Shown here in pieces: positions 27,941 to 30,900 of a DNA stretch of 64,000 nucleotides. The notes beneath the pieces are model-generated. The model saw only the letters and a list, made by a program, of their open reading frames with translations, was not told the DNA's origin and did not search any database. Numbering within the stretch: position 1 is the first letter of the stretch; every line of letters starts with the position of its first letter. The stretch is from Euglena gracilis. Lineage: Eukaryota. A program made the position numbers and the translations under genes. The stretch covers positions 15,023,805 through 15,087,804 of the forward strand of contig CP154954.1 of the NCBI GenBank assembly GCA_039621445.1. Direction: 5' to 3'.

Positions 27941-30900
27941 ATGGACACCTACCGCTCTGAAAGCGGTGAAGAGCCTTGGGGAATGGGGGTGTGCTTTGTG
28001 ATTCATGGCAGAGCAAGTGATCGAGCGATCATGGAACCTTAATGCCATCTTTGTCTCATGGCAAGACAAATTGGATGTTTTAGCTATATTAAAAAAAATT
28101 AGTTTTGAGCGTTATGCGGATCTATTTATTTACCTTTTTTTGGCAATATTTGGTGTATTCATCAGGTTTCATCGCAGTTTGGCTGGCAGGTTGTGAGACA
28201 ACAATTGTGCATTCATTTCGAGCCATATTTGACTGCTATTTATATTTATAATATTCCCCTTCCCAAAGGGGATTGGGTGGGAGAATGCACCCCCCCCCCA
28301 TCCGATGCCCCGCACCCCGCCCACCGGGAATAGGTCTCCTGGCAAGTCAGTGGGAACAAGCGCAGTCGGCAATTTCGCAGTGGGCCTCTGAGTGGACTTT
28401 CAAACACGGCCAGTCAGCCGGTGCTGGCCTGGTCGCGACCATTTCCCGGGGGCGGGGGGGTGAGTTACGCCCGTTTCACTGGACGCAAGTCAAAAAAGCG
28501 ACCATATTTAAGCGCATTCCGCCACCCAATAAAAATCAACAGAATGACAGTTTGAAAACAACTCCCCGGGATGATTTTATTTTTAAGCTTCTTAACTTAA
28601 CTGTTTATTGTGTGTTTTCATTGTGTGCGTGCGTGCGTGCGTGCGTGCGTGCGTGCGTGCGTGCGTGCGTGCGTGCGTGCGTGCGTGCGTGCGTGCGTGC
28701 GTGCGTGCGTGTGTGTGTGTGTGTGTGTGTGTGTGTGTGTGTGTGTGTGTGTGTGTGTGTGTGTGTGTGTGTGTGTGTGTGTGTGTGCGTGCGTGCGGGC
28801 GTGCTGGCGTGCGTGCGTGCGTGCGTGCGTGCGTGCGTGCGTGCGTGCGTGCGTGTGCGTGCGTGCGTGTGTGTGTGTGTGTGTGTGTGTGTGTGTGTGT
28901 GTGTGCGTGCGTGCGTGCGTGCGTGCGTGCGTGCGTGCGTGCGTGTGTGTGTGTGTGTGTGTGTGTGTGTGTGTGTGTGTGTGCGTGCGTGCGTGTGTGT
29001 GTGTGCGTGCGGGCGTGCCGGCGTGCGTGCGTACGTGCATGTGTGCGTGTGTGCGCGTGTGTCTCAAGTCACAGTCCCTTCAATGAAACGTCCTGCCCAG
29101 CCCAGCCCCCCACCCCTCCCGTCCCCCAACAACCCCCGCGTCGCAGGGTTACTCTGCCCGCACCCTGGGCTCCGCCAGCTCCGTCTCCTCCCGGCGGTCG
29201 GTGGTCTCCGCCCAGAGCTCCCTGTGCAGCGCCGCCCGCCGGCTCCGCCGGGGCTTCGGCATCGAGATCTTCCAACAAACTGTGGAGTGTGCTGTGCCTC
29301 GCTGACGCGCCGCCTGTTTGGGCTAGAGTGTTCCGAGGGAGTGCAAAGAAATAAGGTCTGGTTGCCTTTTTGTTTTTTTTTGTTTTTTTGCGATATCACC
29401 GGAGTTGCAACATTTTTTGCCTTTTTTGCCAGGCAATTGCTTTCAAATTCTCACACTTCAGAGTCTTCCATGTTTCCAATAATGTCCTCATCTGCACTTT
29501 CAAGTTTAAATGTTTCATACATTATACTTTTTTTTCAATATCAAGATGTTCTCAATGGAGAGATCTTTGTTTTTTTTGTTGTTGGCGCAAAATGCGGAAG
29601 AATGAAGTTTCCAGCCGAACACCTGAGCCAAACACCATTGAATCCTTGTTGTTTGTAAACCTGGGTTTGTAAAGTTAGTATCGGCCCGGCCCTCCACCAG
29701 GAATCTCCCACGAAGTTCTCATTTTGCGGAGCATAACAGACGGCTTGTGACGTTTGCAAATAACGACTACAAGGCATCCTGGATCTTTTCATCCATTTTG
29801 TACTCGCCAAAATGAGGTTCCCTGACCACCACCCTCCTCCCTATGGCTAGAAAGGCAGATCACCAATTGTGTTACACATCCCACGCAGTCTTTGCAGATT
29901 TCATGGTTTGAGATTTTCCCAGATAATTTTTTGTCCATTCGGAATTTTATACAGTGTGAGACCAGGGATTTTATAGTCGTGGACCTGGGGGGGGCCGGCC
30001 GGGCTCCGGCCGAGCCCCCCCCCCCCCCGGGGTGGTCCCCCCAGAGGGGGGTGGGAAATACTTTTCGGCCGAAAATTTTTGAAAAGGCGCTATTTTTAGC
30101 ACTTTTCGCGATTTTTTGTGGGTCCCCCGGGACCCCCCCTCCGGGGGGCCCAGGGGGGTGGGTGGGTGGGGGGGACCCCCCTCCTCCCCAGTCTTTAAAA
30201 AAACCCCTGTGTGAGACACCATTGTATACCCTCTCTACCCCCGCAACTGTGTGTTCCGAGTGGACTCCCTTTCCTCAGAGTACGACCCTGGAAACCCCAC
30301 AGAATTCCGGCCAGGCCGTTGCTTTGGTCGCTTGACAATACCTTTTGGGTAAAGCCACTGGCGCCACGGCGTACAGGATGCTCGGCTCAATTGCCCAAAC
30401 AACAAAGCCTGCTGACTTGAGCATCTGTCAACCCGGGCTGTGGCCAAGCTGTGTTGGAAGGCCCCCTCCATTCAGGGGAGAGGAAGTGGATTATACGGAG
30501 AACAGCTGTAGGGAATTTTTGGGACAGCTTTTGGTGCAGACGTCGTCATTTGAAGTTTTTGAATGGAAATCTCCATGATGGAATCCTCCCCCCCCCATGC
30601 CCAATGAACACCCTTGCCCAGCGAACAGGGGGTGTTCAGACCGTCTAGATTGTCACCATATACCTTATGTACACAGAAACCGTACCCTAAGCCCAATGAA
30701 CACTCCCCGTTCGGACCGTCTAGATTGTCACCTTAGTGTTCATTGGGCTTGGGGGGGGGGAGGTAATTTTTGAATGGAATTTTGTACGTCCACTCCAGCC
30801 GGGCATCTGCTCAAGTTCACAATCCCCGGGGGGGGGGGGGGTAGGCTGCAGCTGGTCCAAATCTGGCTCGTGGAAATCCTAATGGATCTCCCGGGGGTTT

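Follow-up and report, generated by a model that had tools for sequence, protein, structure and literature searches.

In the 64,000-nt stretch of Euglena gracilis DNA analysed here (the window) there are several families of cut-and-paste transposons that are non-autonomous, comprising MITEs (miniature inverted-repeat transposable elements) as well as larger deletion derivatives. Some of them lie within a gene that contains many of the nonconventional introns typical of euglenids. The transposons have CAG...CTG ends and 8-bp target site duplications (TSDs), and this structure is real and far above chance. The host gene matches a Euglena transcript, and it contains introns with like ends and degraded 8-nt flanking repeats that are absent from the mRNA. 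The explanation that probably accounts for these observations as a whole is that CAG...CTG transposons with 8-bp TSDs are excised by Euglena's intron rule and become nonconventional introns.

Four elements had been cited in a first-pass annotation of the sequence, and all four lie where it placed them. Each has CAGG...C(C/T)TG ends and is abutted on both sides by a perfect 8-bp direct repeat (E1 to E4 below). Two more elements were added, one of them (E5) by an all-against-all search for 8-mer direct repeats around inverted ends and the other (E3b) by a BLAST of the elements against the window, in which it is 89% identical to E3. The elements, with the matches in their terminal inverted repeats (TIRs) where scored, are as follows.

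E1, 4236-4657 (4228..4665 with both TSDs), unstranded: MITE of 422 bp, TSD GTATGCAT, TIR 13/16, upstream of the mapped gene.
E2, 29963-30209, unstranded: MITE of 247 bp, ends CAGGG...CCCTG, TIR 10/12, in conventional intron 2 (29287-30278).
E2 left TSD, 29955..29962, unstranded: TGTGAGAC, 8 bp.
E2 right TSD, 30210..30217, unstranded: TGTGAGAC, 8 bp.
E3, 58821-59216 (58813..59224 with TSDs), unstranded: MITE of 396 bp, TSD GTGCAGCA, nested in nonconventional intron 28.
E3b, 41658-42049 (41650..42057 with TSDs), unstranded: second full-length copy of the E3 family, TSD CTCCCACC/CTCCCCCC matching 7/8, in GC-AG intron 16.
E4, 59731-60974 (59723..60982 with TSDs), unstranded: element of 1244 bp, TSD GCCATGAT, right end CTTG, in intron 29.
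E5, 12759-14508 (12751..14516 with TSDs), unstranded: non-autonomous element of 1750 bp, TSD CTCGCGCC, left end CACGG, TIR 15/16, upstream of the mapped gene.

The TSDs are perfect over 8 bp in five elements and match at 7/8 in one (E3b). TIR matches range from 10 to 15/16 across the elements, with ends of CAGGC, CAGGG and CAGAG and mutated ends of CACGG and CAAGC. E2 begins with CAGGGATTTT and ends with AAACCCCTG, and it lies about 60 nt upstream of the acceptor of intron 2. Within the TSDs, T occupies position 2 in 4/6 and A occupies position 7 in 3/6, which is a small sample. The first-pass annotation had described the elements as unrelated families. This was too strong, because although the sequences differ they have an architecture in common, with G/C homopolymer-rich arms and an AT-rich core, as well as short patches of similarity. 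E5 contains internal 10-bp arrays similar to those of E4; these degenerate arrays of about 10 bp (13179-13475 in E5; 60019-60330 and 60530-60830 in E4) have a unit like GCCACTTTTG and are in inverted orientation. Both elements also have G+C-rich 8-10-bp arrays close to their ends.

The families are present in multiple copies. The window contains two copies of E3 and at least four E2-like copies, which were located by BLAST at 14748-14965, 17757-18005, 22836-23099 and 37991-38192. Several of these are degraded; the copy at 22836-23099 is without a TSD (3/8 by eye) and other E2-like fragments are truncated. DNA and RNA reads were placed on 53174-59720, a stretch that includes E3 and many of the nonconventional introns and keeps clear of the long microsatellites; the RNA came from three runs that share a species label with the DNA runs containing the window. 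Word depth over E3 in the DNA run was 1.6e5-7.7e5 compared to about 33 in the flanks, a difference of more than 1000-fold, where word depth is not equal to copy number. Loose ends in the DNA run fell exactly at 58821 (145 contigs) and at 59216/59217 (53 + 56 contigs), where flanks unlike one another set in. Contig breaks at both ends of E3, together with low consensus agreement, indicate many copies in different flanks. A separate motif, GTCCAACGACC, and its complement recur beside several E2-like copies (18010-18050, 22800-22815 and 27020-27060) and possibly represent the terminus of a further repeat family.

An annotation-blind scan of the window was performed for CAG...CTG ends with TIRs of at least 9/12, flanks not of low complexity and lengths of 60-3000 bp, and was compared to 200 dinucleotide-preserving shuffles of the window. 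Candidates with TSDs of 8/8 numbered 3, compared to a shuffle mean of 0.01 (maximum 1). At 7/8 or better there were 5 (0.28 in shuffles), and at 6/8 or better there were 12 (2.62 in shuffles). E4 and E5 were missed because their end triplets are mutated, and E3b was dropped because of the low-complexity filter. The register profile of the duplication has its maximum at n = 8. Matches in the six young elements at this register numbered 8, 8, 8, 7, 8 and 8, compared to 0-4 for the most part elsewhere; the exceptions come from low-complexity flanks (E1, 10/12 at n = 12; E2, 7/10 at n = 10; E3b, 5-7 at n = 9-12). Upstream of the mapped gene, CAG...CTG candidates with 6/8 flanks were found at 6100-6661, 8853-11472, 14748-14965 (E2 family) and 20151-20921. 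Some of these are due to chance, as the shuffles yield 2.6 such candidates per window.

The host gene was identified from a period-3 scan that picked out 31771-31951. The translation of an exon at 31775-31903 matches eukprot EG_transcript_1913 at 98% identity, and this was the sole protein matched. The 956-aa protein maps colinearly onto the window as about 34 exons with 89-100% identity per exon; composition filters on open reading frames (ORFs) did not reveal these exons. The naming style of the transcript is that of the Euglena gracilis transcriptome (Ebenezer et al. 2019; PMC6366073). The 98% match and the colinear exons indicate that the window comes from E. gracilis, or from an allele or strain very close to it, which settles in the affirmative the euglenid host that the first-pass annotation had only supposed. 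Amino-acid differences between the window and EG_transcript_1913 amount to 0-11% per exon, and exon 22 (55377-55387) has an extra Thr codon. These differences in sequence suggest a different allele, a paralogue or a separate strain. The host protein gave no match to a Pfam domain.

Host gene, 27941..63948 (at least), + strand: EG_transcript_1913, residues 1-822 of 956 mapped, 33 introns in the window.

Introns were defined by enumerating every donor/acceptor pair that reproduces the protein. A GT/GC-AG reading is available for twelve of the 33, and the other 21 are nonconventional. The first-pass annotation had supposed cuts 3 nt before the CAG and 5 nt after the CTG, and this geometry is that of the genetically defined code 5'-N3CDG-/-CH'GN5-6^R (where ^ marks the cut), which was established by knock-ins in E. 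gracilis (PMC12501133). In the sections of that paper on spacing, the 3-nt donor spacer tolerates no change, the acceptor side is best at 5 nt and tolerates 6 nt, and a CTG...CAG variant can be spliced. CAG at +4..+6 and CTG at -8..-6 occur in one register in 9/21 nonconventional introns of the host gene (introns 12, 17, 19, 21, 23, 28, 32, 33 and 34), and a purine comes next after eight of these nine N3-CAG...CTG-N5 introns. Introns 3 and 13 agree with the code if the 3' spacer is taken as 6 nt (N3...N6^R). The full published code is matched by 11 of the 21 (introns 3, 12, 13, 17, 19, 21, 23, 30, 32, 33 and 34). Selected introns are listed here.

Intron 17, 42207..43150, + strand: N3-CAG...CTG-N5^A, MITE-like ends matching 12/16, flanks GCCGCCAC/GCCGCAAC matching 7/8.
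Intron 21, 55103..55340, + strand: 238 nt, ends CAGAGGTCCTTT/CAGAGGTTCTTT, flanks CGTGGGAC/CGTTGGAC matching 7/8.
Intron 28, 58455..59290, + strand: TIR 14/16, flanks TCCCCATC/TCTCCCTC matching 6/8; carries E3.
Intron 33, 62824..63559, + strand: N3-CAG...CTG-N5^A, ends like those of intron 17, flanks matching 5/8.
Intron 19, 54021..54813, + strand: non-slidable N3-CAG...CTG-N5^A, flanks matching 1/8 with no trace of a TSD.
Intron 30, 61438-61987, + strand: CTG...CAG variant that keeps the 3-nt/5-nt geometry.
Intron 20, 54864-55087, + strand: one of nine non-fitting introns, keeping the 3/5 geometry with GTG...CAC and a perfect 12-nt inverted repeat.

Three of these introns were returned by the blind scan, which took no account of exons: introns 17 (42210-43145), 21 (55106-55335) and 28 (58458-59285), with TSDs of 7/8, 7/8 and 6/8, respectively. 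Their inverted ends are CAGG/CAGAG. This bears on a concern raised in the first-pass annotation, that the copies all avoid exons. The four cited copies are indeed non-exonic, but introns 17, 21 and 28 are MITE-like copies that interrupt exons. The idea of an intron-generating system, put forward in the same annotation, is partly supported, its core having evidence within this very window: the euglenid host, the -3/+5 geometry and these exon-interrupting copies. No GT/GC-AG register exists for any of the MITE-like introns 17, 21, 28 and 33, which sets them apart from spliceosomal introners.

The register of the intron flanks was assessed by comparing the n bases before the CAG to the n bases after the CTG, for n = 4-12, in 11 CAG/CTG-anchored introns. 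At n = 8, 43 of 88 positions matched (0.49), and the proportion at n = 4-7 and 9-12 was 0.21-0.38. When partners were permuted among the 11 introns, the mean was 30.2 matches (P = 0.004). The nine N3/N5 introns alone gave 37/72 matches at n = 8 (P = 0.0026). Leaving out intron 32 gave 43/80 (P = 0.00035), and the fuller set is preferred.

RNA data were examined for removal of the introns, with junction evidence drawn from the loose ends of reads. RNA depth covers the bins with exons 19-28 and is 0-0.14 in bins of unique intron sequence only; bins over E3 hold RNA reads of other E3 copies. At intron 21, RNA depth was present on the flanking exon bins only. The intron 19 junction (54020^54814) was observed in 4 reads (X22), in which the end of exon 19 stands directly before 54814. 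Removal of intron 28 was seen in reads in which exon 29 sequence, followed by that of exon 30, comes immediately after 58458 (9 reads in X21 and 13 reads in X22). The MITE-like introns 17, 21, 28 and 33 are all absent from the mRNA-derived protein. For 29000-31000, which includes E2, the sequencing-run search listed no RNA run. In RNA folding, the ends of 29960-30214 are paired, with a minimum free energy of -150.3 kcal/mol (z -3.3), and the ends of intron 21 are paired as well. According to a 2024 review, nonconventional introns are released as full-length circular RNA (PMC11282704); among the joints listed for 53174-59720 there was no circle junction.

Nonconventional introns of Euglena are cut 3 nt upstream of a paired CAG and 5 (or 6) nt downstream of the CTG, and the next base is preferably a purine. 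In the proposed mechanism, a new insertion would have the layout ABCDE^FGH-CAG...CTG-ABCDE^FGH, in which cuts at the carets would remove the element plus eight bases and leave ABCDEFGH restored. Since 3 + 5 = 8, an exonic insertion would be excised with exactly one TSD copy and the original mRNA would be recovered. The element ends are mutual reverse complements, so the excision would hold in both orientations. Because the mRNA is restored, such insertions would be tolerated and would become nonconventional introns. Later the intronic TSD halves and the interior would degrade, and the CAG/CTG triplets and their spacing would be kept. Efficiency would depend on base F, the sixth base of the TSD, being a purine; this base is G in both E2 and E3. 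These two elements fit the code, E2 as GAC-CAG...CTG-TGTGA^G and E3 as GCA-CAG...CTG-GTGCA^G, and the segment predicted for E2 is as follows.

Predicted E2 excision segment, 29960..30214, + strand: N3 = GAC, CAG...CTG, N5 = TGTGA, next base G; a prediction only.

As young intronic copies, E2 and E3 may themselves be cut from pre-mRNA as introns within introns, and most nonconventional introns may have arisen from insertions of this kind. A more far-reaching proposal is quite conceivable, though we would hesitate to call it probable. Nonconventional splicing and active CAG...CTG transposons with 8-bp TSDs would form a matched pair, and these transposons would chiefly supply the class to which most euglenid introns belong (71.8% of introns in E. 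agilis). Exon insertions in either orientation would be erased from the RNA to the exact base if the sixth TSD base is a purine, nested E2 and E3 would be excised independently as introns within introns, and the 3- and 5-nt spacers would be the imprint of the 8-bp staggered cut made by the transposase.

Several observations weigh against an origin of the introns from these transposons. Nine of the 21 nonconventional introns are without the CAG/CTG geometry. Six of the 11 anchored introns have flank matches of 4/8 or fewer, introns 19 and 32 having 1/8 and 0/8, and introns 17, 21, 28 and 33 contribute most of the 8-nt signal. Among the elements, E1, E3b, E4 and E5 each break one part of the code, with a pyrimidine after the cut in E1 and E3b, a TTG end in E4 and a CAC start in E5. 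After intron 28, too, the next base is a pyrimidine. Neither the protein nor the reads settle the register of this intron, whose donor could be at any position in 58454-58458, since a single synonymous base is all that separates the alternatives. An excision junction of E3 was not seen in the RNA, where an intronic depth of about 0-2 gives no power to detect one. The intron junctions were placed by means of a protein with 0-11% difference per exon from the window and not by means of transcript nucleotides, and the data come from one gene in one window.

The identity of the transposons was considered separately from their fate. Elements of the hAT superfamily have the terminal consensus 5'-YARNG and a weak target preference for nTnnnnAn. 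The 8-bp TSDs and the CAGGG/CAGAG termini, which fit this consensus, point to hAT, and the family may be hAT-like. This is a likeness in TSD length and terminal motif and not proven membership, since the window contains no transposase: apart from the LINE-like retrotransposon of intron 18, Pfam matched none of the 261 ORFs that are 90 aa or longer. It is rather unlikely that another superfamily with 8-bp TSDs, above all Merlin, mobilises these elements, in which case the intron-healing mechanism would be unchanged and only the label would differ. Two Merlin families, both with 8-bp TSDs, are described in E. gracilis in the part of PMC8101967 that deals with them, and a hAT transposase was not found among the window ORFs. 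However, all Merlin TIRs in that account begin with 5'-GG, whereas the perfect TSDs here abut CAG. A 2-nt shift of the boundary destroys the repeat, as the n = 10 register gives 0-7/10 compared to 8/8. Merlin membership was therefore rejected on the terminus, which is CAG instead of GG next to the TSD, although the TSD length agrees with the 8-9 bp of Merlin.

That the introns are connected to the elements can also be disputed. If nonconventional introns did not come from transposons, their CAG/CTG ends would be demanded by splicing, their flanking repeats would come from double-strand-break repair, and the MITEs would be mere lookalikes or would themselves be derived from introns. Selection for pairing would produce TIR-like ends, and the 8-nt repeats of a new intron are read as a possible trace of double-strand-break repair in the relevant section of PMC4770533. 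The poor flank matches of six anchored introns also fit this view. Yet the free, non-exonic copies, on which splicing exerts no selection, show like ends, perfect 8-bp TSDs and high multiplicity. The intron TIRs reach 12-14/16 nt, well past the required triplet, and the flank identity of the introns peaks specifically at 8 nt, all of which makes an origin without transposons quite improbable. It is highly improbable that these are ordinary intronic MITEs unlinked to splicing, with 3 + 5 = 8 a numerical coincidence. The four cited copies do all lie outside exons, and no excision of them was seen in RNA, with reads at E3 only. Against this, introns 17, 21 and 28 were picked by a scan ignorant of exons, the partner permutation argues against coincidence, and in experiments the donor spacing allows only 3 nt and the acceptor spacing works best with 5 nt (PMC12501133).

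Other repeats are present in the introns of the host gene, among them one that resembles a long interspersed nuclear element (LINE).

LINE-like retrotransposon, 43926-51770, - strand: 7.8 kb, 69% G+C, located within the host gene in conventional intron 18 (10.7 kb).

Its 1639-aa ORF contains RVT_1, RNase_H and zf-RVT domains, and upstream of it a 785-aa ORF gave no hit in Pfam. Pfam searches of eight chosen ORFs returned the LINE domains only. Long intronic microsatellites include (GT)n of 1.35 kb beside the LINE (51827-53173), (GT)n of 0.58 kb (43241-43816), (GTGC)n of 0.43 kb (28625-29055) and (ATAC)n of 0.27 kb (36316-36589). ARAGORN called a 93-nt tRNA-Gly at 6584-6676 (+ strand). The call overlaps a G/C-rich repeat, has no Rfam tRNA at its position (Rfam gave 0 matches in the window) and is probably false.

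The origin and excision mechanism of euglenid nonconventional introns have been open for decades. A MITE-like origin was proposed by Milanowski et al. in 2014 (PMC3935182), in a section noting that transposable elements were then unidentified in euglenid genomes. The proposal was repeated in the 2024 review (PMC11282704), where the CAG/CTG ends are called TIRs and the junction repeats TSD-like in the part on intron origin, and again in the discussion of PMC12501133 (2025). A newly gained gapC intron of E. agilis has eight-nucleotide direct repeats, as stated in the account of that intron in PMC4770533. No explicit link of the 3 + 5 spacers to an 8-bp TSD or to hAT was found in the literature searched (supplements excluded), and the term hAT is absent from the main texts of PMC12501133, PMC11282704 and PMC6366073. 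The MITE origin itself is therefore not new, and the link to the 8-bp TSD and the free young copies appear to be. The present finding refines a known hypothesis, to which it adds the first concrete elements and a quantitative rule, and is not a new hypothesis.

Free young elements and copies that have become introns occur next to one another in this window. The equality of TSD length with the sum of the 5' and 3' spacers would give a quantitative reason for insertions to be harmless, and it makes the hypothesis directly testable and points to which transposase to seek. If true, a transposon would here create introns without the spliceosome and irrespective of its orientation.

With the euglenid nonconventional introns already described, the elements share the host genus, the positions of CAG (+4..+6) and CTG (-8..-6), the pairing of the ends and the presence of direct repeats where the junctions lie. 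The difference is that earlier papers inferred a MITE origin from introns alone, whereas here free multi-copy elements with perfect 8-bp TSDs stand beside intron copies. They resemble hAT MITEs (Ac/Ds-like) in their 8-bp TSDs, short imperfect TIRs with CAGGG/CAGAG, non-coding interiors and many copies, and differ in that removal from host RNA would follow a non-spliceosomal rule matched to TSD length. Merlin elements of E. gracilis, as characterised in the pertinent part of PMC8101967, occur in the same species and have 8-bp TSDs, but their TIRs start with GG, whereas CAGG is found at the TSD here. Introners of Micromonas, Aureococcus, dinoflagellates and other organisms are likewise DNA transposons with TIRs and TSDs that turned into introns on a genome scale, and their TSD helps to restore the exon (PMC11282704). 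They use GT/GC-AG spliceosomal sites, however, and have TSDs of 3-5 nt in the examples quoted in that review. In contrast to introners, the Euglena elements are non-GT-AG and have an 8-bp TSD, with a cut measured from the paired CAG/CTG and splicing predicted in either orientation.

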